A stretch of DNA of 64,000 nucleotides from positions 1 to 64,000 of the IMG/VR virus record IMGVR_UViG_3300035661_000023. One strand, given 5' to 3'. Positions 1 to 64,000 of this stretch are shown piece by piece. The notes beneath the pieces were generated by a model, which did not search any database, had not been told where the DNA came from, and was given only the letters and a program-made list of their open reading frames with translations. The translations under genes and the position numbers were made by a program. Numbering within the stretch: the stretch's first letter is position 1; each line of letters opens with the position of its first letter. This DNA comes from a virus.

Positions 1-230
1 CAGATATAATCAGGGATAGTAATAAACTTGTCTAGTTTATTCTGTGCTGTAATCTGATGTTTGAAGTATTCCTTCTTAATGCCATCCCAATAGTATTCAC
101 GGAAGAATGAAATGGCTTCATCAATTCTGTCCTCTAGTTGCTCAGTAGCAACATCAATGTTAATTAATGGCGCACCAAGTGCTCTAAAAACATATGCCTT
201 TAATTGTTCTCTATTAGAAACTATTGCCAT
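1..230 (-). CDS. gp13: Neck protein, T4 gp13-like (5' part; runs off the window)
   Basis: Translates MAIVSNREQLKAYVFRALGAPLINIDVATEQLEDRIDEAISFFREYYWDG, which matches the gp13 N-terminus pattern (LRxLGAPVIxIxV..QxxDRIDEAL). Confidence 0.85.
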   Translation of the reverse strand, partial: MAIVSNREQLKAYVFRALGAPLINIDVATEQLEDRIDEAISFFREYYWDGIKKEYFKHQITAQNKLDKFITIPDYI

Positions 231-232
231 GT

Positions 233-682
233 TCAACCTTGATTAATCTTGTTTGATTTCTCTATTAGCAACTTTAGAGAGTAATATAAAATACCAGGGC
301 TGAATAGATATGCCTTTTCAAATCCAAGTAATTCTGCAATTATCTCTGAACAGAAGTATTTATTCTTTGTGTTGTAGATCTATGGAATTATAAATCCAAA
401 ATTTCCTAAGAGATCATATCCCATACCCACTTTGGATTGCAAATTGTTTCTAATATCTGCTTCCCATTCATCAGGTAAATCAATAAAATCCCAACGATCT
501 GGATCATATACGATATTTTTGATTCTTACCCCACCATCTATGTAAGATGAAGAACCCTACATGCCGTCCTAGAACAAGAACTCGCAGTGAGAATATGGAG
601 TTCTTGTCCACCAACGGACTACTCTAGAGTAGATACCCTCTATCCCGGGTCTCACATCTTTATAGAAAGCAGCTTGAAACAT
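233..682 (-). CDS. Permuted papain-like (NlpC/P60-related) amidase/hydrolase; contains in-frame TAGs
   Basis: MFQAAFYK...PYSHCEFLF*DGM*GSSSYIDGGVR...GYDLLG...KYFCSEIIAELLG. The His (YSH) precedes the Cys (FCSE). Ends at TGA 233-235. Missing from the ORF track because of TAGs at 569-571 and 557-559. Confidence 0.7.
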
Positions 683-712
683 GATTAGCCTCTCTATACA
701 ATTCTTCTTGAG

Positions 713-806
713 TCATTCAGAATCCTTATGACTTTCATTTGGTTCAACGGCTGAAGTACCAATATCATACCTAGGCTCCTATAGCAGTAACGAGATACTT
801 TGCCAT
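713..806 (-). pseudogene. Relic of a third Gly-rich protein/partner module
   Basis: MAKYLVTAIGA matches the KYLVTAIGG motif of the Gly-rich paralogs. It is followed by TSAVEPNESHKDSE*, which resembles the partner protein C-terminus TAPVQPNEIPRGI*. Confidence 0.55.
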
Positions 807-808
807 TA

Positions 809-1216
809 TTAACCCTTGTAGACTTCATCGAGTTGGATAGCAGAGTCCAGAATGATCAGAGCACGACCTACAGCCAATAGACCAAGACTTTCCAGTGCCA
901 TAACACCTGCCCTAGTATCTTCTCTGTCTAGATCAATGAATGTAGCTGCCATGATCTTTTCTTTGTAGCGACGTATTGCTGCAGTGTTCACGGTTGAACC
1001 AATAGAAGCCAGATCAAGAGCAATAGCCTCACCATCGGAGAATCTATTCATGAAAGCCAGTTTAGTGATATTTCTATGTTCTGGCTATTGCACGACTACT
1101 GCTGCTTCAATAACTTCTCTGTAATTTCCGCTAGGGAAATTATCTGTCATATACATATGATCTGCTACAATATTGTTATGTACAGATCCATCTGGATTTA
1201 AAATTTCAAAAATCAT
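809..1216 (-). CDS. Tail-fibre-associated small protein (putative assembly chaperone), paralog B
   Basis: MIFEILNPDGSVHNNIVAD...Q*PEHRNITKLAFMNRFSDGEAIALDLAS. 135 aa with 1 TAG. Same length as, and clearly paralogous to, 3155..3562. Confidence 0.7.
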
Positions 1217-1230
1217 GTTCAGTTCCCAAT

Positions 1231-2091
1231 TCAGAAAACAAATTCAATAATAACACCACCATCACCACCTTTGCCAGAAGCTGCATTATCACCCGATGGT
1301 CCGCCACCACCACCAAAATTTCCACCATAGCCACCACTCTGTGTATTCTGTGCATCATATCCACCACCGGCAAACAGACCTCCATGGCCGCCGTTGCCGG
1401 CCTGGTAGCCGCCTCCAGCTCCTGGCCCGCCAGCCGCAGAAAAAGAGTCAGATGCCCCAGATTTTCCCCCCGAGCCCATGGGACATAACAGTCGTCCTAA
1501 AAATGTGTTAGTGTTTATTAAACCAGATATTGCAGACCCCCCGGCATAGCCAATACTTATTGATAATGCTGATTCTCCTACTCCAGCGCCATAGCGTGCT
1601 GTACTTGGCGCTGGAGTAGTCCCGTATACACCGACCGCACCTCCACCGGAACTGTTAGCATTACCTGCGCTGCCCCCTTGCACATTCATTGTGTTGCCAC
1701 CCTAAGCGGTACCCCCTGCGCTTGCCCCTGATGCTGCACCGCCTGCTCCCCCGTTCGATGTGAGAGTCGTATAACCTGGTATTGTCACAGTAGTTGTTCC
1801 GCCGGCGTTGCCAGGCACTGGGGCACCTGCCACATATGCCCCGCCTGCCCCAACGGTAAAACTTATTACATCACCTGCTTTTAGTGCACAAATAGATTGC
1901 GCGAGCCCACCCGCGCCCCCACCGCGGCACAAGTTTGTGCCAGATCCACCACTACCACCACCGCCGATAGCAGTAACCAGATATTTTCCGTCCATTGGAA
2001 CAGTAAACTAACCAGATGTATTTGTGGCTCGCATCTGCAAGAACTAGCCAGCAGATGATGTTGATGAGAAGAATTGAGTTAAAGTGCTCAT
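1231..2091 (-). CDS. Glycine-rich tail-fibre/adhesin-like protein B
   Basis: MSTLTQFF...TSG*FTVPMDGKYLVTAIGGGG...GGTA*GGN...GGDGGVIIEFVF. Joins track ORFs 1702..1995 and 1231..1689 through TAGs. Polyglycine motifs throughout. Confidence 0.75.
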
Positions 2092-8163: not shown

Positions 8164-11100
8164 TTATCTCAAATTTAAGCCGTTGCGGATGTACTGTTGG
8201 ATGCTAGGGTATTCCCACGTAGAAAGTGCTCTAGTCTTTGAATCCCAGCCCATGATCGTGTCTATACTGATCTCTGAAGGCCCAGAGTAATATGCACTTC
8301 CGAGTGTGTTTGGTAGTTCATATTTAACCCCAGTGTATGGGAGTTCGGGAATGTTGTACGGTTCAGCGAGTACTGGCGGAATAGCCGCTGGTTGTGTAGT
8401 CCATGCCCATGCATTTCTTCTCAGAGTAATCTCTGGTAGGAACAATGTCTCAACCCAGTAATCTTGCTTAGGTGACAGTGTAAGAGAACCAGAGAAATCA
8501 ACAACGTTGAACGGATTCACATTAACAATTTTGGATGAATATTGAGACTTCGCAAAATTCTACTCAATATAGTTAAGAGTTACAAACCCACCATCATTCA
8601 CCTTCACGTTGGTAGTTTCTGTAGCAGGAACATACAACTGAAGATTGATCTACTCATTTTCCAGACGGCAGTAGATTCCATCCTGTGGAGAAGTAGAGGC
8701 AGAATAACCTGTGGCTAGAACATCTGCGATCTCAAATGGATCTTGCACATTTTCTACTAGGTACCCAGTCTTGTATTTCTCCAGACCTGTCTTAGCATCA
8801 ATAACCTTAGTCTGAAGCAATTGTGTCTCTGCTACCGATAGAGTAGCAAATTCTTCCACCTTATCGATTCGTTCTTCAATATTGGAAATTGCTTCCATTG
8901 TATAAGTGTTTACAGCCACACGATAAGAATTAATATCGTTAATGGAATACAGATATGGAGGAAGGTCGTATCTGTCTAACACATAAGCATCTTCTGGTAC
9001 TGCAGGAACTCTAGGTGCTTTACCTGGGTTGCCTTCTTGTACAAAGATCTCGCCGGATTTATCTACACAGACGAGATCAATCCTACCAAGATAATAAGTA
9101 ACACTTGTATCGATTGAAGAACCAGAAACAACAGGATTCGAATTCACACCGGTACGAAGATCCAAACAATCTCTCATGGAGATAGGAGAACCATTTGCAG
9201 GAGTGTAAGATTCAATATAATGATTTGGTATACCGGCATATGAATCTGCACTGAAGAAACTAGATGTTCCAGAGTGTTGCAGGTAAACATACTTGATCTT
9301 GATATCCTGACCTGCTGGTAGTGAAGAGATACCGGGCCGCAATTCAAGATATGAGTTCAGATATGCAAACTCTGTGGTGTTTCTCGAGAATCTGAAGTCA
9401 TTGATTCGCTCAATGCCGCCGATTACAACACTCTACACAAAGACAACATCATAATTGGGCAGTGTAATTTTTCTCTGCCCCAATGTAGAAGTTGACATGA
9501 ACGGGGTATCAGAAACTTCTTGCACTGTTTTTGTCTTTGCGGCAGCTGCTGATTTTCTTACTTGAACAAAGCAGATGTAGCCAGCAGTATTAGGTCCGGT
9601 GATAGATGTTCCACCACTAGAAACACTGAATCCTGCAATAGACACAGGAAGACCTGCCAGGCTGTATACTGTAAAGATACCTGTGTCTACACCAACGACT
9701 GTACCAGAACTCACTGTACCAGAAACAGATGAACCAGAGTTGATCGTCAATCTTTCCCATGTGGTTATATCCATATCTGGTAGATTGTTAGAATCCTTCA
9801 GTGTCTAGACACCATTTCTACCTAGATACTGAATAAGGTTATCAGCACCATCAGAGAACAAGCAACCGATAGAAAGAATCTTTGCGCCTGCTGCAGGCGA
9901 TGTGGTAGCAATAATCTATCCTGGCTGTGGCATCTACGCACCTGGGGTATTTCCAGATTTGAACACAAATAGCATGTTAGTGGACTGTTCATATCCACTA
10001 ATAGAGAACTCTGTGCCATTGATAGCAGTCACTGCAGAGATTGATGCCCAGTTGCTAGTGGAATCAACTTGTGTCTCATGAACCATAGCACCAAACGTTG
10101 TGCTAGTACCAACAATTCTTGCACATGTTGACAGAGAAGAGTACCCATTTGCATAGGCGAAATCATAGAAGTAAACTTTATCTACTCTTCTTTCTCCCCA
10201 TGAAGAACCTGCATAGAAATCTACCGTCAAGAACTTAGCAGTAGCTACAACATTACCACCTGCGGAAGCAGTGTCATAGAATGTAATCGTTCCGCCTGGA
10301 GCAGGTAACTGACTCGCATTAGTAACATTCACCAGAACATATGAACCATACGCAATTCTTTTTGTCAGTCGCTCTGGTGCACCACTAGTTCTAGGTTTGT
10401 CTACTACTACATAGTTTGGAACAAGTGTTTCTACACCGAAGCCGTAAATGTATGCTTTACCCTGAGTAACATTGTATACTAATTTCTGTTCAAAACTAGC
10501 TTCTTCTGAGGGAGATGTAGCAGTAAACTTGCCGCTGTTGTTACCCGCGCGCAGATATTCCTGTGCATAACCTTTCAACCCATCTACTACATAATTACCT
10601 GATTCTTCATATGTGCGCTTGGCGAATGATTTCTCGAGTTCGTTGTACTTCGGGAAACGAGCATGTTCTTCCAACACACCTTCGTTGTATCTCATCAGTT
10701 CAACATACTCATCTGTGATAGCAGCATCGAGTGGGAGCGAGATCAAGTCGATCTCAATCTTGACTCTGTCCGCGCCTGGCGCAGTGTAGTTATAACTACC
10801 CTGAGATGGATCTAACAGTGTCTCATCATCTGTATATTCTACAAGAGATTCTGTGATCTTGAACAGAACATGTGCAGAAGGAGAAACAGTGTATCTGGAG
10901 ATAGTTACTGTCTGCTTCGGTGTGCTAACGAATGTGCCATTGATGTAATACACACCAGCATTCACGAAAGCAAGTGAGCCAAGACCAACAGGTGAAGGTT
11001 CACCGGAAATTAGATTCAAATCATTAATCAATGCTCTCTGTGAAATGTCAGTTTTCACATACACTTCTTCATCTGGCAAGAATTTGCTAGTAGCAAGAGT

Positions 11101-11508
11101 ATTTCCGCTCTGAGTGTAGATACCAGATTTTGTATAAGCGAGATAGAAGGTCTTGGGTGTGCTATTGGATGATTCATTCTCAATGTGAATTATCTTAGCC
11201 TCAACACCGGATGTCACACCAACAATCGTCTTGTTAAAGAATCTGGTGTTATCAATAATTATGCCGTTGAATGATGAGCCTACGGTAATGTAATCTACAC
11301 CCAGTTGAGCAAAACTATTACCCGGAATAACAATGGAACCATGTTTAAAAATGTGGTTGCCAAACTTCTCGATCTGATTTCGCAGTATAGTCTGAAGTTG
11401 AGTCAATTCTCTGGCTTGCACAGCATAACCAGGTTTGAACATAATCTGATGATAATTCTTGAATTCATCAAAATCATCAAAGTATGGGCTGACGTTATAG
11501 TTCTTCAT
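8164..11508 (-). CDS. VrlC/DUF4815-like virion structural protein, N-terminal half
   Basis: MKNYNVSPYFDDFDEFKNYHQIMFKPGYAVQARELTQLQTILRNQIEKFG, APGADR, RTYEESGNY, YYLGRID. Fragments in frame through TAG. Ends TAA at 8164. Confidence 0.85.
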
Positions 11509-13910: not shown

Positions 13911-14393
13911 TCAGTTAACGGTGATAGACCATGTGACAGTAAGAGAATCACCTGCTTCTTTGTTCACCACATTGAAAGTAGTTCTTGCCAGCATGTTGCC
14001 ACCTGAAGCTGCATCCATAATACCGGCTTCCTTAAGTGCACCAGTGCCAGCTCCCGGACCGAATAATGCAGTGTAAGTAACTGTAGGCCCAGTGCCTGTG
14101 TTTGCACCTGAGGAAAGAGTAAGTGCAACTCGACCGACTTCAGCACCGAGCCCCACATCGCCAGTAACTGCAGCTGTCTGCGTAGTACCAACTGCCATGT
14201 GCGACATAGGAGAAGTATATACTACACCTGATGCTGCTTGCCTCATGAGTCTGGCGATATAATCTTTACCAGATCCAACAACTAGGTTCTTCACCTCTCT
14301 GCTGTCTTTAACAGTGCCATCGGCTGCTGTTAGCTTAATCGTAAGTTGACCAGTAACTCCTGAATCACTTACTAATACTCTGTCATTGATCAT
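13911..14393 (-). CDS. Baseplate/tail-associated structural protein
   Basis: Intact track ORF with KNLVV..G...MAVGT...EAGI...MLARTTFNVVNK...DSLTVTWSIT. Confidence 0.7.
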   Translation of the reverse strand: MINDRVLVSDSGVTGQLTIKLTAADGTVKDSREVKNLVVGSGKDYIARLMRQAASGVVYTSPMSHMAVGTTQTAAVTGDVGLGAEVGRVALTLSSGANTGTGPTVTYTALFGPGAGTGALKEAGIMDAASGGNMLARTTFNVVNKEAGDSLTVTWSITVN

Positions 14394-16141
14394 TCTACGA
14401 TCTCCAATTGTATTGAGAAGAAACCACCTTCGGTGGACGGGTCGGTTACGTCAAAGAAGGAAGTTACGGAAATGTGCGCCACGGGGTAATTATAATCATT
14501 ATTTATGCCGTACCACGTGTCAGCTGACCCAGAAACATCCCCATAAGAATAATCGGGTTCCCAGCCTCCAAATGAAATATAGTCTGCTACTACATTCTTC
14601 TAGATATTCTTAGCAAGAGTTTCTGAAGGAGATATGTAATCTTCGAGTACCTTTTCAACATGCTTGATATTAAAGTCAAATGTTGATGTACCATCAAACA
14701 GAACTACATAATCTGAAGATATACTTCTCTAACCTGTAACAGCGTAATCCAATCCGTTCATTCTTCTCTATTGAATGAACGACTTAGTTCCGGCAGGGTG
14801 ATTAAATTTAATTATCTACTCTGCTTCTTTAAACTATTTCTATGTTTCAATAGTATAAGAATATGTCTGATAATAGAAACTATCTTGAATGATGGACTGA
14901 GCATCAGAAATTAATCCCGTCCAGTCATCGAATCTACCATTACTCTTTACGATATAATCAAATTTCTAGATCAATACTGTTCTGGATTCTTTCCATTGAT
15001 CTATTGTGTAAGAACTAAAATCCGTAAACAGAGTCGGTTTAGCCTGACTTACAGTCTGAATAAATGCCAAAGAACCATAATATGGTCCTACTTCCGGCAT
15101 CTGTTGCTTGTAGTAATCTCCAGACAGCATATACGTCTGAATCCAGGATCCACCATCAATAACCTCTGTCATACCTTCTATATCATCTAGAATATCAATT
15201 CTGTGATGTTCTGTGATAGCACCAGTAGTGAAATTGACTGAATCAATCTCCGATGTTATATTAATATTTCCGGTCGGAGGCTTCTAGAATGGATAAATTG
15301 TATACCATGAATTTTCTAATAATTCATAGCCATATTCTTTTATTTCTACAGTTTTGATCTACCCAGTACCAGTTGAACTGTACACCCTAGCAATTGTTGA
15401 TTTCTTCTATCCGGGAATCTAGAAAACCTGCCCTTTTTGCCAATACTTTCCGCCGGTATGGATATCAAAATGACTGAATGTCTTTTTAATAATACCTTCG
15501 TAGACCTTAATCCCATTTCGTTTAATCTGAAATTTTTGAAGATTACTCTCTGATGTTGTGTCAATATAGAACTGTTGTTTAGAATCAAAGAAGATCAATG
15601 AATCAGAATTGGAAACAACTTCTACTTTCTTGACATTTATAGAGAAAATACCCTTTGCATTGGCCCATGATAACTTATCGTATGGCTCAATCACGAACGC
15701 ATCTGATATTTTGTAAAGTGTCTATAGACGAATATGGTATTCCTGAGTCCATGTAGACTCAGAGGCACGAAGCATATTATACTTCGGATATGCTACTTCA
15801 ATTTCTTCACCGAATGCAATTCTGAATAAGAACTTAAGACATTTCTCAGTACCTTTATGAGAATATACTTCTGCTGCATTTCTTAGAAAATTGATAGTTG
15901 TTATATTTGAAAATGTTGGTACATCTATTGCAAATTGATTTCTGTAATGCTCAATGAAAACATCCAGATACTTTTCATCCAATGAGGAAGCAAGATCCAA
16001 ATCAGTAGCATAATTCAACTTACCATTGAACGTATCTTCTTCAATGAATCTATAGTATTCCTCTACGAATTGAATTAGATTCGGGAATTCTTCTCTAAAG
16101 AACTCCGGAAATCTATTGCTTGTTATTAGATCTGTTTTCAT
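14390..16141 (-). CDS. gp7: Baseplate wedge subunit, gp7-like
   Basis: PEFFREEFPNLIQFVEEYY...YSHKGTEKCLKFLFRIAFGEEIEV.YP and C-terminal QDSFYYQTYSY...HPAG. Continuous through TAGs and ends TGA overlapping the next ATG. Confidence 0.75.
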
Positions 16142-17928
16142 TTAATAGATGAGAATGTCTTCGACTACACTTTATCATAATCAACATAAGTAAGAACTTC
16201 ACAATCTTGATAATCTATTTTTATAATAGTGTCTCTCAATGGGATAACATCATAAGATGACACAAATATATCAAACCAGAAACCATCATCATATAAACTA
16301 GAAATTGTGATAGCATCAGTCTTGATAATGCCTTCTTTGAAATCAACTGTGCCGATCTATTGAATGAATTGATCTACACCTGAGGGTAGTACTTCATATA
16401 AATCCAATTTTCCAGCAAGTGAATTCATTAAGAAGAAAGAATTAGAAGATCCAGGAAGATAGAACCTGCTAGATTTAACCTATCCTGTTTTGATATCAAT
16501 GGGGTTATTTAATTTCACAGAATATGTTTCAGATGTGCCAACAATAATAGTAAGATACTGTTTGACATAAACCTTTGTCAAATTGCTAACAATACTATAA
16601 TCTGTAGAGTCAATGAGTTTAGTAAGAGTAGAATATCTGAAACTCTTTTTCAATGAATTCAAAGAATTAACATAATTCAAAACCCCATTCTTGATTAGAA
16701 CAGAAATATCATCAGCTGTTTTAGTTGTTTTATCAGGATTAAAATATACACCTGTTTTGATTACTAGATTAGTATATGTTGGATCTACAATAATAGGCTG
16801 AATAGAAAGCATTGATCTATTCGCCTTCAAGAACTCAACTATTTCAAATTTCTCATCTACAGAACATGCATTTCTATCAAATGGTTTTGCACAGATATAA
16901 ACTGACCCATATCTTGGTGGATAATGATCTTCACCTCCCCAGACGGAGACAGATTCAACAAATGGAAACTGTTGTAATATCTGTGAGATATAATCTTTAT
17001 CGGTTACAGCTCTATTCTGCGCAACATAATTGCGAGGTGCATTATACTTTACGGACTCAATTGATTCTGCATTTGCACCACCTGAAGATAATTCCAAAGT
17101 AGTCACTTGATAAAGTGCATCACCCCTGTATCCACCGGCATAATAGAACTGCCCACAATTATTTGCTGATTGTCCGGAAGAAGCATAATAATCCAAGTAA
17201 ACAACATTGCCAGTATCAATTGCTTTACCTAATACATCATTACCAAAATAAACTTCATAGAAAAGATCTTCTCTTTGTTTAACAAAATAAACAGTATCTT
17301 GACTGGAGACCTATAGAAGATCCAATGATCTATTAAATGTCTGGGATGATATATTGCTAACAGATTCTTGAACTCGCACTGTCAACGAAGTCATGTCGGC
17401 ATTCTTATTTGGGATGACAAATGTAGTACCGATTGAATTGACATAACTGGTCTGTATGTATGATCCTTCTATTACATCTACCTCAAATACGAATCTTCCA
17501 TTCAACAGTTCTGCAGTCTTAGCATAATAAGTCTGGAAAACATATTCATTGGTACCAATTACTCCACGAAACATCGTTCCCTTTGGTAGGGTTAATTGTG
17601 TCGATGTAAGATTTTGTACTTCCTACATCTCTACTCTGACTTTTGCTCTGGCAGATGTGACAGATTTGGCTGTATATCCAATTGATTTAGCCAGAGACAC
17701 AACACTCGAATACTTACTGGCAGAATCAATGAATGACTCGTTCAGAGCCATATTTGTATACAATGAATGATAATGTAGGTTATAAGCAAGAACATCAATT
17801 AATGTACTTAGAGCAGAACCCTCAAAGTTATAATCACTGAATGTAGCTTGACCTTGAAGGAATGTCTTAATATTTGCTTTAATTCCATCAAAATCCAACT
17901 AGTCTACTTTGATAAGATTATTACTCAT
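16138..17928 (-). CDS. gp6: Baseplate wedge subunit gp6
   Basis: LDFDGIKANIKTFL...FSDYNFEGSALSTLIDVLAYN...ESIESVKYNAPRNYVAQNRAVT..DY...VWGGE. ATGA overlaps at both ends once TAG is read through. Confidence 0.9.
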
Positions 17929-18312: not shown

Positions 18313-20751
18313 TTATGCCTTTAACACAAATTTTCCACTGCCGATTGTCTTATTAATTGCCGCATCAATTGTAAGATTTTGACAACGATAGTCACCTTCT
18401 TTGAACTAGACATGAATCCACGTACTAGAACCTTTGTATTCTAGAATCAATTGTCTATATGCGGGCAGTATCTTTTGGATCTCAATAATAGCCTGATAAT
18501 GTTGTTCTCTGGAGAATCCTGATAGTTGAATATCAGCAGCACATCCTGTCAAGTGATCTGATGTTTTCTAGCCACCTATTTTACTATTTACGGTTTCTGA
18601 TCTCCATGTGTTTGTGATTCTCATGTTTGGAAATTTTGCCTTAATTGTGTCCAGACAGTTCACAGTCAATTTCTTGAGATTGCACACAATCTCAGAAGCA
18701 GTCTTTCCGTAGTTTTTTCCTCTGGGGTATCCAGAACTTCCAGTCAGAACATCACCAAGTTTAAACAGCGATGACAATTGATATTGCGGGACTATGTCAG
18801 CATCAGTCAGATTCTCACAATCTGTTGTTAATGGCATCGGTGTTTTTTCTCCTGGCACAGTTTCTTCCTTTGCATCACCTGTAGCCTCTTGAGTTTCATC
18901 CTCGTCGAATTCTTTAGCATTTCTAATCTGGAATTCTACCGGGGATCCTTCATCTGGTGTTTCATAGTTTGCATTGAACATCGCCTTTCTGGTAGGAGTC
19001 GTAAGCAAAGGTAAATCGATTTTGCCGCCAGGTTCTTCTGTTGGTAGTTCCATGCCTCGTACTTTTCTATCAGAGTTCAAGTGAATGTTCTATCCTTCCA
19101 GGGATGTTTCACCATCAGATTCTTCCATAAAAGAAGCATTAGTCTTGATGCTAATATCTTCTTTAGCATGTAGTGCGAATTTTTTACCTACTGCAAGAGT
19201 GTAATTCCCTGTGACCTCGGTTTTCATATCACCAAGTACTTGTAATCTAGCATCATTTTCTACTCTGATATTGGCATCACCTACTATAGTAAGATTACAA
19301 TTACCCTTGATGAAAATATTTCCATCTCTATCCAGAATCTCATATGAATCCCCAACGATTCTGATCATCTTCGTGCCATTGACATCAATTTCTTCATAGG
19401 TGCCGGACTTATGCCACCTATGTAGTCTCTCATTTCCTTTAGAATCATCGAATTCTTCTATGTGACCTCGCTCGGTCATCTTCACATGATTGTAAGGCCA
19501 AGTTGGATTGTAAGGTACCGGGGGTTGTTTCCACGTATTACCTGATGCCGTCTTTACCTACTTGATTCTAGAAGCATCTTTTCTTGCAACGATCGTCTCG
19601 TTTATGTTCTCAGCTCTGGCAAGTCTATTAGAATCAGGTTCGTTCTTGTCTCTAGGGTAAACACCATTCGGATCTTTGAAACCTTCTCCCGTGCTAGACT
19701 GCTGAGTGAATGTAGGAGGTTTGACCCATTTTCCAGTTTCTTTTTGTGTTTTTTCTTCTGTCAGAACTTGATCTGGCGTCTTGTCGATTTTACCCTCAGA
19801 GTTATGAAATCCATCTCTTTCGAACCAATCTCTTTCTTTTGCTCTGCGGTTACCCACATTCTTTGCATAAGTCATCGGGATCAATGCTGCAGCTTCATCA
19901 TATCTTCCAGAATTCAAAGAAGAGAAGAACTGAGACTTGATTAGCCGAGGATAGCCGATGTTATATGCCATCGATACTACTGCCTCAAACATACCTTGAG
20001 TCACAGGTGCTGACAAGTTTCTCTTGATAACAGCAACAAATTCCTTGTTCAGCTTATTCTTGAAAAGATCAATACACTGCGCCTTTGTCAGCACTGTGCC
20101 AGGTCCTACTCTGGAATTGTCCAGAAGATAAGTAGATCCAAACCCGATAGCCCATGCGTTGTGTGTGTCTTGGTACTAGTAAATTCTAGTATCATCTGGT
20201 ATTGATTTCCAATTCTTTCTGTAGTCATTTCTACCGGCAGTCAGGGATGACAATGCTTCTTCATCCATAATAAACATTTCACCGGCATCTGTCATCTATA
20301 GTTCTTGTGGATACTTCAGTGTGTCTGGAGTTGTGTCACCAGAAATGACTGGGTTACCATAGCCATCAGTGACAGTATTCCCCTGAGAATCTGTTACTAC
20401 CGACCCGGTACTATCTCTTGGTACAACTGGCTGATCAGAAACTTCTTGATTTGTGTTGTCAGGAGATTCAAATGGAACACCTGCAATCTAACCTAAGATA
20501 ATAGGGTGCTGCCGATGCTCATCTGCGAATGCAATAGCTACCCATGAACCTTCTACTAGCCCCAGCGGTGTCTGCCCAACACCGCTCACACCTGCAGATG
20601 TGATATCTTGAATAGGTATTGCCCATGGCAAATCGGTGGTAGGCAGTTCTGCCTTATTCTCAGAATGAACACCAAAAACTCTTACTCTGCATCTGCCAAT
20701 CTTAAACTTATCATTTGTGCTTCTTTGTTCTACTACACCAAAATAAATCAT
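18313..20751 (-). CDS. gp5: Baseplate hub/tail spike gp5 with a lysozyme domain and a C-terminal M15 peptidase
   Basis: OB fold (GRCRVRVFGVH..LPTTDLPWA), GH24-like lysozyme, beta-helix (GHIEEFDDSKGNERLHRWHKSGT) and M15 motifs GG*KTSDHLTGCAADI...WIHVSF. One 812-aa frame through TAGs. Confidence 0.85.
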
Positions 20752-29326: not shown

Positions 29327-29331
29327 ACTAG

Positions 29332-32278: not shown

Positions 32279-32292
32279 TTCAATATCCTCAT

Positions 32293-32755: not shown

Positions 32756-32759
32756 ACAC

Positions 32760-37899: not shown

Positions 37900-38211
37900 A
37901 ATGAGTACTATATCATAAAAACAAGGGAAGAACGCGGGAAACTTAAAAAACTGTGTTTTCTATCAAAAAGGTAAGGGATACCCCTTAGTACGCAAAAAAC
38001 GATCAAAAAAGTGTATATAGATCAATCACTTAGCTGTGTGTTTTTACAGTTCTAAACAATTTTCTAGAGATTTCTCTAGTGATTTCCTGGGATTCCCTCT
38101 GGTGTGAAAAATATTTTGCTAAGAGGGGTTTACATCGGAATCGTTCAATATACAATCATATTAAAAGGATAATCTTAGTTGCCCCCACCGCTCGGTTGTA
38201 ATGTAACTATA

Positions 38212-38349
38212 TTAGACTAAGGTCTTTAACTTTGGTGGATCTTGCATCAGATCAGGTGGTGGCAATGGAAACTTTTGTTTTTCTGCAACTGGTACTGTGC
38301 TGCACCCAGCAAATAATAGAACACACAACGATGCTAAAATGAATTTCAT
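38212..38349 (-). CDS. Outer-membrane lipoprotein (o-spanin-like)
   Basis: MKFILASLCVLLFAGC lipobox followed by Pro-rich KFPLPPPDLMQDPP. Confidence 0.7.
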   Translation of the reverse strand: MKFILASLCVLLFAGCSTVPVAEKQKFPLPPPDLMQDPPKLKTLV

Positions 38350-47167: not shown

Positions 47168-50100
47168 TTACTCATAAGCCAGATCAACCAGTTGAGCAAC
47201 AGGAATTGATGCATCGGTGGTACCTAGCGCATAATTACGAATTGTGTATGGTTTGAATCCAGGTTTGTACACAACAATGTCTACATTCTGTTGAACTGAA
47301 TACTCATAGTTCCAATATGTCACCGAGTTGTTTTCTATAGAAGCAATAATGGTTGTTGTACCTGCCATCAGGACCACGATATCAGATCCAGTCTTAAGAC
47401 CAGTCAGTGTCAGATTGTTCACAGATGCTGGATAGTAATTTCCCACTACATTGTCTAGTTCTGTAAACAGGCGGATTGCCATTAACTTACTGGTCGGTTG
47501 TGGTGCAAATACACCAATTGTGTTAGTCGCAGTGATTGTCCCGTGAATACCAACAAGACTCACCTATCCAGATGCAGTAGACAAACTCGCCGCTGTGTTG
47601 CCATAAGATGCTGTGGTTACAGTAAATGTTGTGGCGTTTACAATAGCATGCACGAAGTAGGTAGTTCCCGTGCTCAGACCACCAATCGCGGTTTCTACTC
47701 TGAACCCCATACTTGAGTGTAGGTTAGCAGTGCTGTCACATGTTACTGCTGCATACGTACCGGTTATTACTGTAGATGTAACACCTTGAGGAAAGTTAAC
47801 TACCCATGTGGAGCCGGAGCCGGAGCCGGAGATATTTGCTACAATATATGTACCAGAAGTAACCCCGGTGCCTGTCACCAGCATACCAGGTACTATTGTG
47901 CCAGCAGCTAATGTTCCGACTGTTAATGTAGTTCCAGCAATTGTGGATCCATTCAGTGTCGCTGTTGTATTAGCAGCAGTTGCTGAAATTGTAGCTACTA
48001 AAGTACTAGAATAAATTGTGTCACCGGTAGCCCAAGACCCAGTAACGCTGGAGCACGCGATGCTACCAGTTGTTGATGTAGTTATAGTTTCGTCGGCTTC
48101 AATTACAGCCGTACCAGTTGCAGAGGCGGCTGATAGTGTGTTTCTAATTGTTTCACCGATGACAAACTGTGCAGTCTGCCCTGTGTATTTCATGACATAT
48201 CTTGCACTAACCCGAAACTTGATTCTGAAACCAACTGATGGATCAAAAGCAGTTTCGTATGCTAGATTGCAGATCCCATTATTGCCGTTTAGCAATTTCC
48301 AAGAACCAGAATAACCAGCACCTCTGTCTAAATCATACTCAAGTTTTGCACCCAGAGATGTTACTGGGCTCAGTCCAATATCAACGCCATAGATGTGTGG
48401 CATGCGTCTAGAGAATCCAGTTACACCCTTGATAACATGAGGCCACTCGAATGTGACAACATCTGAGTTGGTAGTAAAGAACAAACCACCCGAGTTATCA
48501 AAATAAGCATTACCAGATACAAACGCATAAGGTTTCAACGACTTAGTCGATGGAGACATTCTAACATCCAAACATCCCTTGTTTGCAGCTCCCCATGTCA
48601 TTTCGTGGAACATGTTATCATAAACCGCAGCAAGTGATGCTGGGTTAACTGGGAAACTATCCTGAGATGGGTTAGTGGTCATATTCCATGATACAGCACT
48701 GTTTACTGGGATAGAATCGCAGCCAGGGGACCCTTTGTAGATTGTATCTAAAGAAGAAGCACCCCACGGACTAATTCCGCTTAGGGTTGATGTTACGTTC
48801 TGAAACTTGATCCCAGATGATGCGTTGTTAATAATAGAATCAAAATACACAGTAGACACATAATTTCTTGGATTGACCATCTTGATATTATGTAAGTACA
48901 CATTATAAGCAGCTGTGGAATATCCCAACAAGTTACCGACGGAACCATTGAACGAGATTGTGGAATTCTTTATCGTGATACCACTAGCTCCGTTCTATGG
49001 ATACAATAGAACGTTTCTATCAGCCAGATAGTTGTTTGCCGGTTGATAATTATCGATCGTGTGATTTGAAGATGAAGCATAAGCAAACGCTACATCTGTT
49101 CCACCAGATTCTGTACTGTAAACTTGGTTCTGATCGGTGATTGTAAAATTAGGTCCTGAATTATCGACATGCAAGTGAGCCCAATACTGACCAGTAGGTG
49201 CTGCTTGGATGTTAGTAACAATACCTGCTGGAGCATCATATAGGAAATAACCAGAAACACCATCAGAGAAGTTGAATAATTGTTGCGGCAAGAATGCAGT
49301 AATAGCCGTCGCATTAGGTGGTGTCGGCACTGGTATAGATGATCCAACTGTGACCATAGCTCGTACAGCTTCTACCATACTACCCATCAGTGGCAATCTG
49401 ATGACTGCGTTAGTTGCGTTTGATGTTGTTGTAAATGTTACAGAATATCTCTTCCATTGGTTAGTCAAAACCAAGCTATTAGTTGTAGTTCCAAACAACA
49501 GATCACAAGTAATATAGTCACGAAGATCTGGGTGTCTAGCTCTTAGATAGACCTAGAATGTATACGGGACTCCGATTCCTGTGTTGATAGTTTGTGTCAG
49601 AGTTCCGTTTGCAGCAGCAGCATATAAAGATGCCCCTAGTGCAGTTCCTAGTGCAGCGTTATTGCCAATAAGGTTGTCAAATGGTGTATACACAGCAGCG
49701 TTTGTTGCTGTGATGTTCGATGCCACCCATGTTGTTGCTAGAGTATCTGATTGCAGTGCCTGGTTTTGGATGACAACAGGAGCAGTAGCAATGCCAGCCA
49801 TCTCAGGCAGTTCTTGCCCAACAACAAAGCGTAGTGTTTGATTCACAAATGTATTTGTGTTTGCAACGGATACTGTCATGGAAGTTGCAGAGTCTACAGT
49901 CTACACTACACTATCTAAGCCAACGTTAGAACCGAAGATATACATTCCGGGAGCAGGACTGAAGCCGATATAAGATCTGTTATTACCTCTAGATGTCACA
50001 TTAGCAGTTAGGTTAGCAGACAGCACGATTGTATCAAAATCTGGCACATCTATCACAGTAGTTCCTACTGGAATGCCGGGTCCGGTTACAATTACTCCTG

Positions 50101-53100
50101 GTATGATACCGTTGGCAAAGAAGTTGAATACCGTAGATGATAGTACGTTTGTACCAACTTTTCCATCAATTTCAAATGATGCTTGCCAGTAGTACCAGCT
50201 ACCTTGTGTGGTGATTGTGTTAGCCGCAGCAGTGCCAGAGCAGTTTGCGATCGATGCAGCTCCACCACCGGACAATTTGCGCAGTCTGTAGTAGTACGTC
50301 GTTCCTTTAGTCACACCATGTGTGTCATTAAAGAACATCTGCCCAGCAGTTACTGATTGTGTAGCACCAATTAATGTTGTAGCATCTCTAGCAGTAAAAC
50401 CTGGTGTAGTTGATCTGAACAACTGATATACACCTTTATAGAAAGATGCAGTCATACCAGACGCAGTTTTAGTAGCAGGCTTGTTGATAGTAAACGTTGT
50501 GCCGTTTGTGATACCTGTTACAATTGCTCCGTTCACTGGGCTGCCAGCGGCACCACCGAATAAAGCCATAGCACCAGTTGCAACTTGGTTACCGTTACTT
50601 AATACCATGACAGTGCCGACTTGCAGACCAGCAGTTGATGTACAAGTCACTGTTGTGCTACCGTTTGTTGTAGAAACAGAAGACGCTGTGTTTAGTGCAG
50701 TACTAAATTCTGTCGATTGGTGATATACGGAAATTCTGTTATATACTGGCATAACATCTGTATACAAAGTCCAGGTAGGAGTTGTTACAGAAATGTCAGA
50801 AGTATACGCAAACCTACCCGTTATCGCAGACACAACACCAACGGCATTACCATTATTCGCAATGCCAATCCAAGATGTAACATCTGGTAGATATTTCAGA
50901 GCAGACCAAGTAACACCATCGGTTGAAGTGGCGAAGCACGCAGATGCTTGAGCTGCAGTAAATGCTGTGTGTGATGTAGTATTCCACACAGAACCAGCCA
51001 TGATCACAAACACAGAACCAGTGAATATGATCTTAGAATATGTCATACCTGTGGGGAGAGCTGGTGCAGTGCTAGCTGTCCAGGATGTTCCGTCTGTGCT
51101 GTATGCGGTAGGCCCTGTTGTACTTGAACCCGAAATTGCAACGAATTTTGAAGCACCGAATGCAATCTATTGCCATAGAGATGATGCTAGAGCACCACCA
51201 GCAGTCCAAGTTGCTCCATCTACGGAATATGCAGATGCAGTACTTGCCACAGACCCACCTGCAATTGCTATATATCTTCCTGCACCGTTTGAAGTTACAT
51301 CAATCCAAGTGGCTGATGCTAATGTGGTTGCAGTAAAAACGAAGGACCCGGTTGTTACACTACCTCTAGTGCCAGCCGTTGACACAGCAGATCCACCAGA
51401 TACTGCTACCCATTTATTTGTTGCTTGGGTGTTATCAAATGCCAGTTTTTGCCACTGAGCAGCTGCTGGTGCAGTTGTTACTTGTGACCAATCTTTCCCA
51501 TTAGTGGAAATTGCAATTAATGTAGAAGCCGCCCCACCACCACCGATTGCCATAAAGTAGTTCTGTGTTGGGCACCAGATAATATCTCGCCAGTATGTAG
51601 AAGCTGTGGTTGATGCTATAGGTAATTGATATGCAGTCCAAGTTACTCCATTATCATCAGAAACCATAGCTGTGTTAGCACCAACAGCTATAGCCCCGTC
51701 TAAAAATACCCATGATCCATTACCGTATGCCATACAAGGTGCCGTTGTTTGCTACCAAGCCGGAGTTACACCCACACGCTGTGGCATTTGCAAATACTTC
51801 GGGAAATTGCCATGCACACCACAAATTGGCATAGAATCTACATAAGACGTTACATCTTGCACATTTGTTGTTTTGTATGATCTAGACTTCAACCAGTATT
51901 TTGTGTCTTTTGCAATGTACTGTTCGTTCTTAACATCTGCCAGAACACGCATACCAGATGCCCAGCTATACCCCTCATTGTTGATACCAGTTCTGTGTGT
52001 GATATTAGAAATCTTGGTGTTGTTGACAACATAGCACCCCATCACACCATTGACATTATACAGCTTGATGTTAGAATAGTTATGATTATTACCAGCACTA
52101 TTTGGTGAAAATGCAGTGTTGTTTGGTCTAGTTTTTGGATATGAACCAACCTGGATTCCTTTGAAGTTGTTGATCGTGACATTATTAGAATAACTAAGTC
52201 CAAAGAATCCTGCATATGCTGAGCCAATCGATGGGTTTGTCTACAAACCGTAGTTCATATGACCACCAAACGTCATCGTCACATTTTGTATATTTGCATT
52301 AGAAACATATGACCACAAAGCACTAGTCAACGAGTTACCAAAAGAGGCAGTATTGCCTAATAACATACGATGTTCGCGAACTACCCAGGGTCCATAATAT
52401 GTGTACGCAGTTGTGCTAGTCGTTGTGTGTGCAGCAGTAGAAATCACTAATGATGTCGCAGAAACTACTGAGGTAACAGTTGCCGCATGAATAGCTGCAC
52501 CACCAGTAGTCAACAACATACCAGGAATAATAGCAGTTGATGACGGTATTGTGATTGTTGTTGAAGATGCAGTAGAAGCACCAGTAGCACCAAGAGCTAC
52601 TGGGCTAGTTACCATCATCCCGAATGATGGTAACTAGAATGCTACGTTATCCATCGATAGCTGGTAGCACTCTGAAATGAATGGAACACACTGCCCACCT
52701 GAGTTAGTGATTGATACAGAACTAGCTTGTGAGAAGTTAGAATATGATTCACCAAACAGAGTCTTGTCAAAGCTAAATTTCCCCCCACCAGCAGAAGTTC
52801 TTAAGTGGAACGGAGCATTACTAGATGTAAACACCGCATTCATGAAGTTAGCCGGAGAATAATCCGTTAACATTATGTTTGGGACTCTAATCTTAGCACC
52901 GGTCGGCGGGAGAGTCCCATTCGTGCCATCTCCGAATCTCAGTGTAGTTGTATTCTGTGCATAGATAGGCAGAATTGCTGCCATTGGTATATTAGCAAAA
53001 CCAGTAGTACCAGAAGATGATGCAAAAGATATTACACCATTAATCGTGAAACTAGTTGAAGATAGTACTTCTTGTACCACAGCACCACCAGATATACTTC

Positions 53101-54649
53101 TGCTGTACACCCAAGTACCGGGTACTAACCCAGCGGTCGATGTGCAGGTTATGACATTTGTATTTACAATTGCATTTGTGTTGCCCAACATTAAGTATTG
53201 GCAAGCAGATTTATTAAAATCTTGAGTGAATACTTTTCCCCCATCGCCCTTCCCGACGGAACGAAATCCATTACGCATCCAGTTCCATTGTGCATAGTCT
53301 GGAGAACCAGAAACATTAACCCATGCTTCATATACACCAGATCCAGAAGCTGTCTCTACCCATATAGTTGGGATATAGTCACCGGTAGTATATGGAGATA
53401 TGACGGTCTGCCCAGCGATTCCGGAGCCAGTGCCAATCTCAATCCAATTGCCGATGGTTTCGAATGTACCAAGTCCGTTTGTGCAGTCGATAGCACTGAG
53501 AACTGCTGTTGTGTTAAGTCTGCCAGTACCAAATCGAATTGGTGTTGTTGTGCTAGAGTTTGTTACAGAGACCTTCCCATTAGTGACGGTCAGTGCTGTA
53601 GTTCCTGCTAAGAAGACTTTCTGATCAGTGTTGACAGTCAAAACAGCACCGTTGTTTACAGTAATGCCATCACCAGATACTAATCTTGGTTTGATCAGTT
53701 TAAATTCTCTGTTATATGCAGCAGATGTGATTGTGGTCACAGACCACTTGACTCCGTCATATGAGAAAGCACCCACCGTACTTGAAATGGTGAGAGCAGT
53801 AAACATCTGCAAACCGTTCGAAGCAGCTTTACCACCAGCAATAATCCAGTTACCAGTAGCAGGAAGTGTAGATGCAAGCCACGTGGCACCGCCATCCAAA
53901 GAATATGCACCTGTTGTTCCAGTTGATGGAACTGCTACCCATGTCCCATTAGAATTGCCAATGTTTGCCCAGCTAATCATAGACCATGCTGCAGCCGATG
54001 GCAGAACTCCAGATCGCAGAGTCCAGTTCTGCCCATCGGTAGATGTACACACATCTTGAGACCCATTGGCGATAAGCACAAACACACCATTGGCAAACTT
54101 CAGATCAATCCAAGCAGCAGTAGAGGGTAGAGTAACTGAGGACCAAGTCGATCCAGCATCGATCTAATATGCAGCTGATGTAGAAGAAGGGGCTACTGTT
54201 ACGAATGTATTGTTGCCAAATGCTAGCAATGACCAAGCTGCAGCAGATGGAAGTGTAGAAGCAGTCCAGCTAATACCTTCCTTGTGTCGCATGTAAGCAG
54301 CAGAAGTTGTGGATGTGTTAACAGAAACAAATGACCCATTACCGTATACACATTTCTTCCATGCAGTACCAGTAGGTAATTGTGTAGCAGCATTAGTAGA
54401 AGCAGCACCAGAAGTTAGAGGAGCAATAACGGCGGCACTAGTTCTGTCTGCGGCTACTAAAACACATAATCCATCATCAGAAAAGTCCCAACCTGTCCAT
54501 GTAGATACAGCAGAGAATATATTACCAGAAGTAGTCCAATTCTGCCCATTGACAGAATAATAAGAAGTTTGCGCGCCGTTTATGGGTGTGTAAAACTGGT
54601 ACCCGACTTCTGAAATATTTTGATCTGTTGTTACAACGTATTGAGTCAT
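47168..54649 (-). CDS. Giant (about 2490 aa) tail-fibre/receptor-binding protein with BNR/Asp-box beta-propeller repeats
   Basis: Ten track ORFs share one frame. Boundaries checked by hand are TAG. Repeats SxDG.(T/S)W and W..(I/V)A(Y/F)GNG. Ends TAA. Confidence 0.8.
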
Positions 54650-55188
54650 TAATTAAAACCCTCTGGCCATCCTGTATTGATATCTATTGATTCTGGATTT
54701 TCAGAATCATCCACCAATGATTTTAAGTACTCTGCATATCCATAAATGCTTTGTTCTTGAATCATCTGGGAATAGTATATCTATTTAATGAGGTCAGAGG
54801 TCATTAAAATCTTAGAACTACTCATTGTTTTCCACATTAAATCTTGTGGGATATTCTCACCAGCAATCAGTAGAGCCAATTGTTGTAATTTAGAATGTGT
54901 GTCGGAGTGAAACCAATTTTCTCCTACTTTACAACCACCATTGGTCATCTTATCATCTCTGATTGCTTGTATATTATTCCAAACATCATCTGCTATCTTT
55001 TTATTAGCAATGTCCATTACACCAAAATCACCATTCACTGCTCTATTGAATAGTTCAACTCCCATTGGGTCTGTATCTGCTGAACTGGCGATATATGGAG
55101 TTTCTACTTCCTGATCTTCAAATACTACATTCATTGAAATAGTATGTCTAGTGCGCCATTTTGGTGAATTAGCAGATATGTAGTTCAT
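54649..55188 (-). CDS. Tail-fibre assembly protein (DUF4376-like)
   Basis: PYIASSADTDPMGVELF..A..GDFG, IQAIRD...WFHSD...WKT, and C-terminal GWPE after the TAG. Confidence 0.7.
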
Positions 55189-61416: not shown

Positions 61417-61417
61417 G

Positions 61418-62473
61418 TCAACAGAATCGGAGAGTAAATTTCTGCCATTCTTCCTATGAACCACCCATTTTTTCTACACCAGCTCTTGTATTAAGAGCTC
61501 GAACAAAAGAACGAATGTTAGCTGTCTTTTCTGGGATTTTTCTCTTTTTCAGAATTTCGATGATTTCTTTTCGTTCTGCTTCATCCAACTTATAGTCAAC
61601 ATCAAGAGGAATCTTCATACAGATCTTGCCAAGGAAGTCATAGATTTCTTCATTTGTAGGATCGATGTTGATAATATATCCACGAGTACGCAGAGCACCA
61701 TCTGGGTCCAATTTGTTTAGTTGCAGATTGGAAATACCAATGATCTTGCCGGTAAACTCAAATGAACGGGGTAGTTCATCCTGCTCCCCTTCTGAATCCC
61801 AATCATAATCAGCAGCATCAACATAATTCTTGCCACCTTTTTGCCAAGAAATTTTTCTAACTTTTTTAGTATCGGCTGCGGCTTTGAACAAATTCCTAGA
61901 ATCAACATCTAAGAAAGCGCCATCACTGTCGTCAAAAAGTATAATTTCTTTGCGATGCTGAAATAGAATTCTATAGATACCAGCAGTGGACGCAGTGCCT
62001 GTTATTTTTACATACCCATCACCATCTGTTTTACCTGCAGCCTTCAGCTCATCTTCAACGTTTTGCGTTTTACCGGTATTATGGTGATTGATACCATCTG
62101 CGGTTAGATATGTATGCTTCTCCGAATCTACTTCCATGTCGTAGAATTCGGATTCTCCATAAGTAGAAATATCTGCTACTTTTACCGTACCATTAATAGT
62201 TTCAATCTCATCTCCCACAGAAAGATCACGAGCGAATATTTTACCATCTGGAGACATAAAAATATGTTCAGACGAGCATTCTACTGTAGCACCGGAATCA
62301 AATACCACAGATGTCGATCTTCCAGTTTTTACAACAAAACTTTTCACAGGTTTAAAACCATCTTTTGTTTCGATTTTGATCTTAAGATCAGAGATATTAT
62401 AAAAAGTTCCGATGTCTAGCTTACCGAACTTCTCTTCTACCATCTATTTAATTGCCGACAGAGTTGTTTTCAT
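61418..62473 (-). CDS. C-intein (132 aa) fused to the C-extein of a P-loop ATPase
   Basis: MKTTLSAIK*MVEE...VECSSEHIF (block B)...FYDMEV...YLTADGINHHN|TGKT...IILFDDSD (Walker B)...FEFTGKIIGISN...ALRTR. Confidence 0.88.
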
Positions 62474-62566
62474 TTAGTTCTTTCAAATAAGAGATTGAGA
62501 TTATCTTGATTATTTATCAATTCATTCATTTCATCTAAAATAGAGTTGAAATTGGAAATTATAAGT

Positions 62567-63502
62567 TTAACCTATTTGAATATTAATTTCAGTCTTGCCG
62601 GCTAAACAGCCCCCTCTTCCAGAAATGAACAGGGCTTGAGTTGCATTCTACATCAGAAGTTTCATAGCAGTCTTCAAAGAATCTAGCTGCTCCTCGTATG
62701 ACAGACGCTCGATATCTGCTTCAGATGTACCTTCGACTTCAACTTCTTCTTTCTACCCAGGTTGAACAGAGTAAGAAACAACTTCATCATCCCCACTTAC
62801 TGCTGCCAGGATCTTTGCTGCATCTAACTTAGCAACAACTTGTTGATTTACTACATTCTTGGTACCTTCCTTCTGTAGGATGTTTGGGTACATTTTGATA
62901 ATGAGACCGTTGATCATGTTCCAGCCTGCGCCAAATTTCTTTGAACCCCCGGCCTTATATTGATCGTTCATATGAATACCTTGCTTCCATGCTGCAATAA
63001 CGGCAGTGAGAGTCTTGGAAATTTCACCAGAAGAATATCTAGCTTCATTGATTTCAGCTACACGAGTGAAGTCTGTTATCATTGGTATGTGCTGAATCTA
63101 CACAAACTCATTAATGTAGAAACCAGATTTATCTAAACCACCCTGTATTAGGTCTACCACCATTGGGAGAACTTTAATAATCTACTGCTCATGATCTAGT
63201 TTAATATGATGAGATGGGTTTGGCTGTGGAGTCTTAGAACCATCCCAGAAATCGATGGAAACTAGTCCCTGTGAGCCGATTTTACCAACTGTTTTCCAGT
63301 TCATACGTACGGATTTAGCACTCCCTCCATCCATGATAAAGAATCTGACACCAACATGTTGTACACCACCTGATGGAATAAAAACTTCTGGTGTTGGGTA
63401 TGGGAACACTTTATTCCCAAGTTTTGAACGCAGATACTTCATGATTAGAAGTTGCGAGGATGTAAAATCTTTTGAGCGAATTGCTTCGGTAATTAGGTTC
63501 AT
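62567..63502 (-). CDS. N-extein of the P-loop ATPase plus a 13-aa N-intein
   Basis: MNLITEAIRSKD... runs through TAGs to ALFISGRGG|CLAGKTEINIQIG-TAA. Confidence 0.85.
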
Positions 63503-63563
63503 GTTGAAAATATCTCCATCTAATATGTTGATCATGAAGCTATTTAATCAATATCTACTTGCT

Positions 63564-63584
63564 AAAAAGCCCTCCGAAGAGGGC
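63564..63584 (-). terminator. Intrinsic terminator
   Basis: GCCCTC TTCG GAGGGC TTTTT on the minus strand, a UUCG tetraloop hairpin with a U-tract. Confidence 0.8.
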
Positions 63585-63600
63585 AATTATTATGCAATTA

Positions 63601-64000
63601 TCAGATTTTCACAAATGTGATGTGCTGTTCTTTTTCTCTTGGGAGAACTTCACCATACGAATTGCGAATATCACAATTTACATTCCATGCATCACGAAGA
63701 ATACTCAAAGACATATCTGAAAAATGTATCAATGCCGGGACATCTTTGCTAAAACATGCAGATCCAGTTCCAGCTCTTCCATCATGCCCAGGTACAACAC
63801 TATGACTTTGTCCTATGCGAGGGTCACATGTGAATGCATCTCTGACTGTGTCGTAAGCAGCACCATGTTTTTCCATCAATTCTTTCATCTGGTTCCAGAA
63901 AACAACTTTCAATGCAAGATATGAGTTGATGGAATACTTGGTAAATGATGCCTCTTTTGCAGACATTTTCTTCACAGGACATTTATTGCAAATGCTATAT
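63601..64000 (-). CDS. UDP-glucose/GDP-mannose dehydrogenase family, C-terminal part
   Basis: EASFTKYSINSYLALKVVFWNQ...DPRIG.SH..VPG.DG..G.GSACFSKD. Confidence 0.85.
   Translation of the reverse strand, partial: YSICNKCPVKKMSAKEASFTKYSINSYLALKVVFWNQMKELMEKHGAAYDTVRDAFTCDPRIGQSHSVVPGHDGRAGTGSACFSKDVPALIHFSDMSLSILRDAWNVNCDIRNSYGEVLPREKEQHITFVKI

Follow-up and report, generated by a model that had tools for sequence, protein, structure and literature searches.

Phages that read the amber codon TAG as glutamine, according to genetic code 15, are known among the crAss-like, Lak, Garnet/Topaz and other phages (Borges et al., bioRxiv 10.1101/2021.08.26.457843; Peters et al., PMC9523058). In phages that depart from the code of their host, Borges et al. 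(10.1101/2021.08.26.457843) observed only the changes of TAG to glutamine and of TGA to tryptophan, and further papers on recoded phages assume translation table 15. The subject of the present analysis is the first 64 kb of a linear viral contig of 97,345 bp and 40% GC from IMG/VR (record IMGVR_UViG_3300035661_000023, here G000); this stretch of 64,000 nucleotides is referred to as the window. An initial annotation, made from the letters of the window, had proposed that TAG is a sense codon throughout and encodes serine. The analysis confirmed that TAG is a sense codon and showed that serine fits it far better than any other amino acid. UAG is very probably translated as serine in this lineage of T4-like myophages, by way of a phage-borne tRNA-Ser with a CUA anticodon.

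The lineage has much in common with the code 15 phages. They likewise carry in-frame TAGs in essential and structural genes, and they share with it the higher coding density obtained by reading through TAG, a phage tRNA(CUA), which in the lineage was seen in a sister contig, the apparent skew of TAG toward late genes and the lack of a phage aminoacyl-tRNA synthetase for the suppressor. However, the amino acid appears to be serine, not glutamine, and the tRNA has a class II tRNA-Ser body. Moreover, in contrast to the code 15 phages of the gut, the lineage is T4-like, with marine pelagiphages and cyanophages as its nearest cultured relatives. The laboratory amber suppressors T4 psu1+ and E. coli supD reportedly derive from tRNA-Ser and insert serine at UAG. 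They resemble the system described here in that a tRNA-Ser bears a CUA anticodon and its synthetase does not read the anticodon, but they are single mutants that rescue nonsense alleles, whereas the lineage would have a fixed natural gene serving more than 200 sense TAGs. In the NCBI tables in Biopython, TAG is assigned to Q, L, Y, E or W and never to S, in agreement with the initial annotation, and no report of a natural TAG to serine assignment in phages was found by full-text literature search.

The completeness of G000 was estimated by CheckV at approximately 59%. Pfam and PHROG searches identified a T4-type baseplate and tail module in the window, as well as NrdB and a SegE-like GIY-YIG endonuclease. 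The GenBank phages nearest in gp6 were Pelagibacter phage HTVC008M, the Methylophilales Melnitz phages and cyanomyophages, at 32-36% amino-acid identity. Because T4-type modules occur together with such low identity to the nearest GenBank phages, the lineage appears to be a deep branch of the T4-like myophages. Two relatives were found in IMG/VR, G001 (60.5 kb) and G002 (79.8 kb), both of which are TAG-recoded too. G001 has approximately 84% nucleotide and 89% amino-acid identity to G000, and the same to G002. The right end of G002 overlaps the right end of G000, and the left 19 kb of G002 overlaps the part of G001 just past the left end of G000. Given these overlaps, a lineage-level map would close at approximately 176 kb, with the arc absent from G000 represented by G002.

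TAG as a sense codon

The window contains 168 in-frame TAGs in 48 of its 66 open reading frames (ORFs), every one of which ends in TAA or TGA. In the whole of G000 there are 211 in-frame TAGs among 125 ORFs, corresponding to 7.0 per 1000 codons, and TAA terminates 52 ORFs. The fraction of the 97,345-bp contig covered by ORFs was calculated under different assumed codes with our own greedy, non-overlapping ORF cover, not with a trained gene caller.

Table 11 (TAG, TGA and TAA as stops): coverage 0.793, mean ORF length 147 amino acids
TAG as sense: coverage 0.923, mean ORF length 241 amino acids
TGA as sense: coverage 0.856
TAA as sense: coverage 0.846

The rise was thus marked for TAG and exceeded that for TGA or TAA. 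In G001, the coverage increased from 0.806 to 0.967 once TAG was taken as sense. When table 11 is applied, the window falls into many short ORFs, and TAG readthrough joins these into long ones that terminate at TAA or TGA; examples are 47168-54649 (2493 amino acids), 18313-20751 (812 amino acids) and 8164-11508 (1114 amino acids). The frames are interrupted by TAG only, never by TAA or TGA. The TAGs are uniformly distributed along the ORFs, with decile counts of 17-24, and neighbouring ORFs on the same strand overlap by 4 nucleotides in 16 cases. Furthermore, protein profiles were matched nearly end to end across the TAGs: gp6 in PHROG from 5 to 581 of 598 positions across six TAGs, T4_baseplate from 4 to 218 of 219 across five and NrdB from 8 to 277 of 281 across four. 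The profiles of gp6, gp26, NrdB and gp5 were each matched across 4-7 TAGs.

These results confirmed the claim of the initial annotation that TAG serves as a sense codon throughout the genome. The twelve TAG positions that it had cited were all exact, together with their peptide contexts (54164, 32979, 18568, 20488, 19090, 26717, 35963, 35573, 569, 557, 3141 and 1702), and the interruption by TAG was verified individually for gp5, gp6, the gp26-like hub, NrdB and the gene with the GIY-YIG motif. The TAG-containing genes on which the following sections draw are listed below.

233-682, minus strand: called an amidase in the initial annotation only; 3 TAGs, including 569 and 557
14390-16141, minus strand: baseplate wedge protein, 583 amino acids; 12 in-frame TAGs, the window maximum per ORF
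16138-17928, minus strand: gp6-like baseplate wedge, 596 amino acids; 6 TAGs
18313-20751, minus strand: gp5-like hub with lysozyme and M15 peptidase domains, 812 amino acids; 7 TAGs
24863-26254, plus strand: tail-tube-like protein, 463 amino acids; 10 TAGs, with many TAG/TCN swaps relative to G001
26654-27373, plus strand: gp26-like baseplate hub (Pfam T4_baseplate, full length); 5 TAGs, three of which are TCG or TCA in G001
32760-33305, minus strand: SegE-like GIY-YIG endonuclease; 5 TAGs, including 32979 in the motif YYG*N
35513-36475, minus strand: NrdB, 320 amino acids; 4 TAGs
47168-54649, minus strand: giant fibre-like ORF, 2493 amino acids; 9 TAGs

The stop codon of the ORF at 233-682 is replaced by TAG in G001, with a TAA directly after it.

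The amino acid at TAG

Two independent sequence tests were used to identify the amino acid. One was the exchange of codons between relatives. The DNA of G000 and G001 and of G002 and G001 was aligned and the codons were read in the frame of the called ORFs, which gave 11,800 and 4,228 codon pairs, respectively. Over the two genome comparisons, TAG was conserved as TAG at 81 sites and faced a sense codon at 116, with the following partners.

Serine codons, 62 in total: TCT 34, TCA 15, TCG 9, TCC 3, AGC 1
Glutamine codons, 23 in total: CAG 20, CAA 3
Other codons: alanine 9, the remaining amino acids at most 4 each

The swaps were scored with substitution frequencies taken from these genome pairs themselves, which gave a log-likelihood of -232 for serine, -329 for tryptophan, which has very few counts, and -331 for glutamine. 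In its exchange behaviour TAG resembled TCT, and approximately one quarter of the TAGs faced another serine codon. Most of the TAG/Ser pairs differ at two bases, as TAG/TCT and TAG/TCA do, and these two-base differences fit synonymous drift by way of TCG. TAG makes up 8.1% of the pool of serine codons plus TAG and is more frequent than TCG or AGC.

The other test was the composition of conserved columns. For NrdB, gp5 and gp6 from the window and a gp41-type helicase from G002, 80-150 homologues each were aligned to the TAG-masked query, and those with more than 75% identity were discarded. Serine was the commonest residue in 11 of the 20 TAG columns, followed by threonine (3), glycine (2), aspartate (2), asparagine (1) and glutamate (1); glutamine was commonest in none. 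By comparison, serine was the commonest residue in 6.9% of 2,136 non-TAG columns. The summed log column frequency over the TAG columns was -26 for serine, -79 for alanine, -84 for threonine and -110 for glutamine. In NrdB, serine was found in 99%, 98% and 95% of 115 homologues at 36113, 35963 and 35573, respectively. In gp5 it was the commonest residue at 20296, 20176, 19090 (42%), 18568 (89%) and 18406 (72%), and in gp6 at 16480 and 16357 among 150 homologues. Moreover, in gp41 the glutamine-type swap partners lie in variable columns and the serine-type partners in conserved ones. A comparison by tblastn with IMG/VR homologues of approximately 35% identity, over 33 columns, gave a weak preference (S -94.8, A -96.5, Q -98.4), because most TAGs lie in variable columns at this identity.

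The columns are thus not dominated by glutamine, as table 15 would require, and the choice of serine over glutamine in the initial annotation was borne out by both tests. That choice had rested in part on family consensus motifs; of these, the sites NrdB 35963 and 35573 and gp5 18568 and 19090 proved to be columns in which serine is commonest, whereas the column of gp5 20488 has threonine in 70% and serine in 27% of the homologues. It had also rested on the giant fibre, where AY*IDAGSTW (TAG at 54164) is accompanied by AYSLDGGATW, AYSVDGATW and AYSTDGTSW. Self-BLAST of the giant fibre ORF showed no internal repeats, and the AYS.D comparison consists of four short instances.

The probable decoding tRNA and competing explanations

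The arc of G002 that is absent from G000 contains a cluster of 13-14 tRNA genes. Among them, at L156:17520-17609 on a segment of G002, is a 90-nucleotide tRNA(CUA) with an Rfam tRNA score of 54 bits, an anticodon loop reading C-U-CUA-A-A and an encoded CCA end. In the fold given by ARAGORN it has a long variable arm with a 6-bp stem, which places it in class II (stem of at least 5 bp). The identity set of E. coli tRNA-Ser comprises G1-C72, G2-C71, A/G3-U/C70 and C11-G24, and the corresponding pairs G1-C72, G2-C71, A3-U70 and C11-G24 are all present. The D-arm is that of T4 tRNA-Ser except for one base. When the tRNA was compared by blastn with 50,697 phage records and 5,426 E. coli genomes, all of the annotated hits were tRNA-Ser (4 of 4 in phages, 1 of 1 in E. 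coli). Alignment with tRNA-Ser and tRNA-Leu genes gave 70-71% identity with three tRNA-Ser genes from phages, compared with 47-53% for tRNA-Leu. No ordinary tRNA-Ser was found in the G002 cluster. The long-armed tRNA-Ser(CUA) foreseen by the initial annotation therefore exists in a sister contig, but was not found in G000 itself, which presumably carries the same tRNA in its missing arc, in a cluster predicted to lie approximately 20-30 kb past the right end of the contig.

A tRNA of this kind could work as follows. The phage would bear its own amber suppressor, a tRNA with a CUA anticodon whose long-armed body is that of a class II tRNA-Ser. The seryl-tRNA synthetase (SerRS) of the host would charge it, recognising the variable arm and the acceptor stem. 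SerRS does not read the anticodon. No class II aminoacyl-tRNA synthetase core (Pfam tRNA-synt_2b, the SerRS core) was found in G000, G001 or G002, and for both of these reasons the host enzyme is the probable source of charging. The charged tRNA would then place serine at UAG in competition with host release factor 1 (RF1), and TAG would since have drifted into the serine codon family. The release-factor scan proposed in the initial annotation revealed no RF-1 domain in the three contigs.

The distribution and context of TAG bear on how such a system may operate. Per 1000 codons, TAG occurred 10.5 times in the module of baseplate and tail genes (1-29.7 kb), 5.2 times in the block of nucleotide metabolism and replication, and 4.5 times in the arc at 63.6-97.3 kb, where 37 of 57 ORFs are free of TAG and which is taken to hold early genes. 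The density of TAG in the baseplate and tail genes is thus approximately double that of the arc, and since this module is so rich in TAG, late proteins of full length would depend on the suppressor tRNA. TAG may in this way gate the late genes. Additionally, the base after an in-frame TAG was A in 47% of cases, compared with 30% after TCN codons (chi-square p = 2e-5), and the base after true stops was T in 46%. Amber suppression is favoured by a purine on the 3' side, A in particular, and termination by a 3' U; an excess of A after TAG would be expected where the suppressor has an active RF1 as its competitor.

Several observations weigh against this account. No tRNA was detected by ARAGORN or Rfam in the window, in the whole of G000 or in G001, and the suppressor was seen in G002 only, which is a different species-level genome. 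The G002 tRNA(CUA) has U73 as its discriminator base, where bacterial tRNA-Ser typically has G73; U73 also occurs in two of the three phage tRNA-Ser genes compared, those of Vibrio phage R29Z and Erwinia phage Vettismorki. Some TAG columns favour other residues, such as NrdB 35564 with glycine in 97% and gp6 17899 with glutamate in 58%, and the NrdB relatives in the PDB are too distant to carry serine at the TAG sites. Furthermore, 20% of the TAG swaps are with glutamine codons, mostly CAG, and the 20 TAG/CAG events are several-fold above comparable first-position transitions such as Pro/Ser. The simplest reading of this excess is a single C-to-T step together with tolerated replacement of glutamine by serine at variable sites; TAG would open a one-step path between the two amino acids.

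The possibility of code 15, with TAG read as glutamine as in the crAss-like, Lak and other recoded phages, draws on the CAG and CAA partners in 23 of the 116 swaps and on the glutamine that stands opposite some TAGs in the closest database proteins. However, six public entries (P0121, P0125, P0241, P0243, P0001 and P0002) have this glutamine at columns that are serine in approximately 90-99% of homologues and TAG in G000, one of them at two such columns, which suggests that the source pipelines are likely to have translated TAG with table 15. Glutamine was commonest in none of the 20 TAG columns, with a summed score of -110 against -26 for serine, and three TAGs of NrdB lie at columns with serine in 95-99% of homologues. 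TCT and TCA account for half of the swaps, and these would be two-step, non-conservative exchanges if TAG were glutamine. Moreover, the only CUA tRNA of the lineage has a class II serine-type body and not a glutamine-type one, and this assignment is scarcely credible. That there is no code change at all, and that the interrupted frames are decayed pseudogenes or artefacts of assembly or sequencing, is suggested by nothing beyond the metagenomic origin of the contigs. The chance of this is negligible: TAG alone breaks the frames, the profiles run full length across it, and the 81 conserved TAGs are kept in place across genomes assembled independently from different samples.

The decoding might also be supplied by a host that reads UAG as serine or has a suppressor, with the phage mirroring the host code. 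G000 and G001 have no detected tRNA genes, and some recoded phages lack suppressor tRNAs. However, the sister genome G002 has its own serine-type tRNA(CUA) within a tRNA cluster, and the uneven TAG density (10.5 versus 4.5 per 1000 codons) fits a supply timed by the phage. No bacterium is known to use UAG as a sense codon. All known bacterial code changes reassign UGA according to the Codetta survey, and supply by the host is very unlikely. A further alternative is ambiguous decoding, in which UAG is mainly serine but a real fraction is read as glutamine by a near-cognate tRNA-Gln or terminated by RF1, so that genes with TAG would yield mixed or reduced products. The excess of CAG/TAG pairs is in its favour, as are the presumably active host RF1, no release-factor gene having been found in the three contigs, and the enrichment of A after TAG, which suggests selection for suppression efficiency. 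On the other hand, TAG occupies near-invariant serine columns of an essential enzyme and occurs up to 12 times in a single baseplate gene, a density at which termination or misincorporation on a substantial scale would carry a high cost. Mutation bias, together with tolerated replacement of glutamine by serine at variable sites such as gp41 columns 130, 452 and 467, can account for the CAG excess. Ambiguous decoding to a substantial degree is therefore considered improbable, although it is the least improbable of these alternatives, and a minor share of decoding as glutamine may occur. The serine reading is supported by both sequence tests, which are independent of each other, and by the corresponding tRNA of G002, and what is described here is probably a natural code with UAG as serine, fixed in a genus-level T4-like lineage and implemented by the phage-borne tRNA-Ser(CUA).

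The tRNA cluster of G002 has other features. A permuted, two-piece transfer-messenger RNA (tmRNA) lies inside it at 53257-53522 (Rfam RF04321, 94.7 bits), for which ARAGORN gave the tag peptide ANADTFLMAA. A group I intron at 54657-54849 (Rfam RF00028, 66 bits) was placed in the anticodon loop of a tRNA-Met(CAU) at 54633-54896 when ARAGORN was run with introns allowed. The tRNA with the highest score in the cluster (67 bits, 50036-50111) was called an ochre suppressor (UUA) by ARAGORN. Ochre suppression is unlikely, because TAA ends so many ORFs of G000 and because a better-paired fold gives the loop CCUUUAA with a Lys(UUU) anticodon and an unusual C33.

Other carriers, repeats and implications

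Other carriers were sought among IMG/VR and metagenome contigs with a strict pattern consisting of the serine-type D-arm and the CUA anticodon loop. Serine-type CUA tRNAs with long variable arms were found in 6 more IMG/VR contigs and 11 metagenome contigs (L173-L178 and L190-L200), the two lists having at least two contigs in common, and none of the carriers belongs to the lineage of G000. Some of these tRNAs directly adjoin a tRNA-Ser(UGA), some occur in three tandem copies, and those with an encoded CCA end have G73. The initial annotation had suggested that a CUA suppressor may arise from a tRNA-Ser with the anticodon CGA by one mutation, whereas the neighbour in these cases is the UGA type. 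One carrier (G003) is a complete genome of 110.6 kb with direct terminal repeats, in which a 16.4-kb frame at 50530-66969 without TAA or TGA contains 57 TAGs; most of the TAG-containing ORFs of this genome had no Pfam family. Another (G005) has ORFs of 3392 and 1298 amino acids with 7 and 6 TAGs, respectively. The lineage may therefore be one instance of a wider, overlooked class of carriers of serine-type CUA tRNAs. An exact search with the anticodon arm returned mostly short, unrelated CUA tRNAs. An unrelated CUA tRNA-like gene with an insertion of approximately 30 nucleotides after the anticodon arm was also encountered (L166:13586-13602 and L168:407-423); it was not called by ARAGORN, and one copy lies in a viral contig of 180 kb.

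Several repeats were observed in the three genomes. Short elements sharing 88-100% identity are found repeatedly in and among them at the following positions.

Window: 37938-38228
G000: 79560-79807 and 97219-97345
G002: 1-793, 29238-29349 and 79629-79755

The ends of G000 and of G002 fall on such elements, which may be assembly break points. A 62-nucleotide direct repeat (90% identity, window 32278-32339 and 32697-32758) overlaps both ends of a small ORF at 32337-32759, which adjoins the GIY-YIG endonuclease gene. A perfect tandem duplication of 30 nucleotides (window 29020-29079) lies inside an ORF of 621 amino acids at 27461-29326, with an in-frame TAG in each copy. Dispersed repeats of the window were not strong enough to be used as lineage probes.

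The stop recodings reported in phages are TAG read as glutamine and TGA read as tryptophan or glycine, and serine would add a new entry to the natural codes. The shortest route to such recoding would be any tRNA whose synthetase ignores the anticodon. Standard pipelines would mistranslate the lineage, and gene callers that use table 15 would misplace glutamine at approximately 0.7% of its residues, including near-invariant serine positions. The lineage would also be a natural setting in which a suppressor tRNA and RF1 compete, with the bias toward A after TAG as the visible sign, and it would allow the gating of late genes by tRNA supply to be tested.

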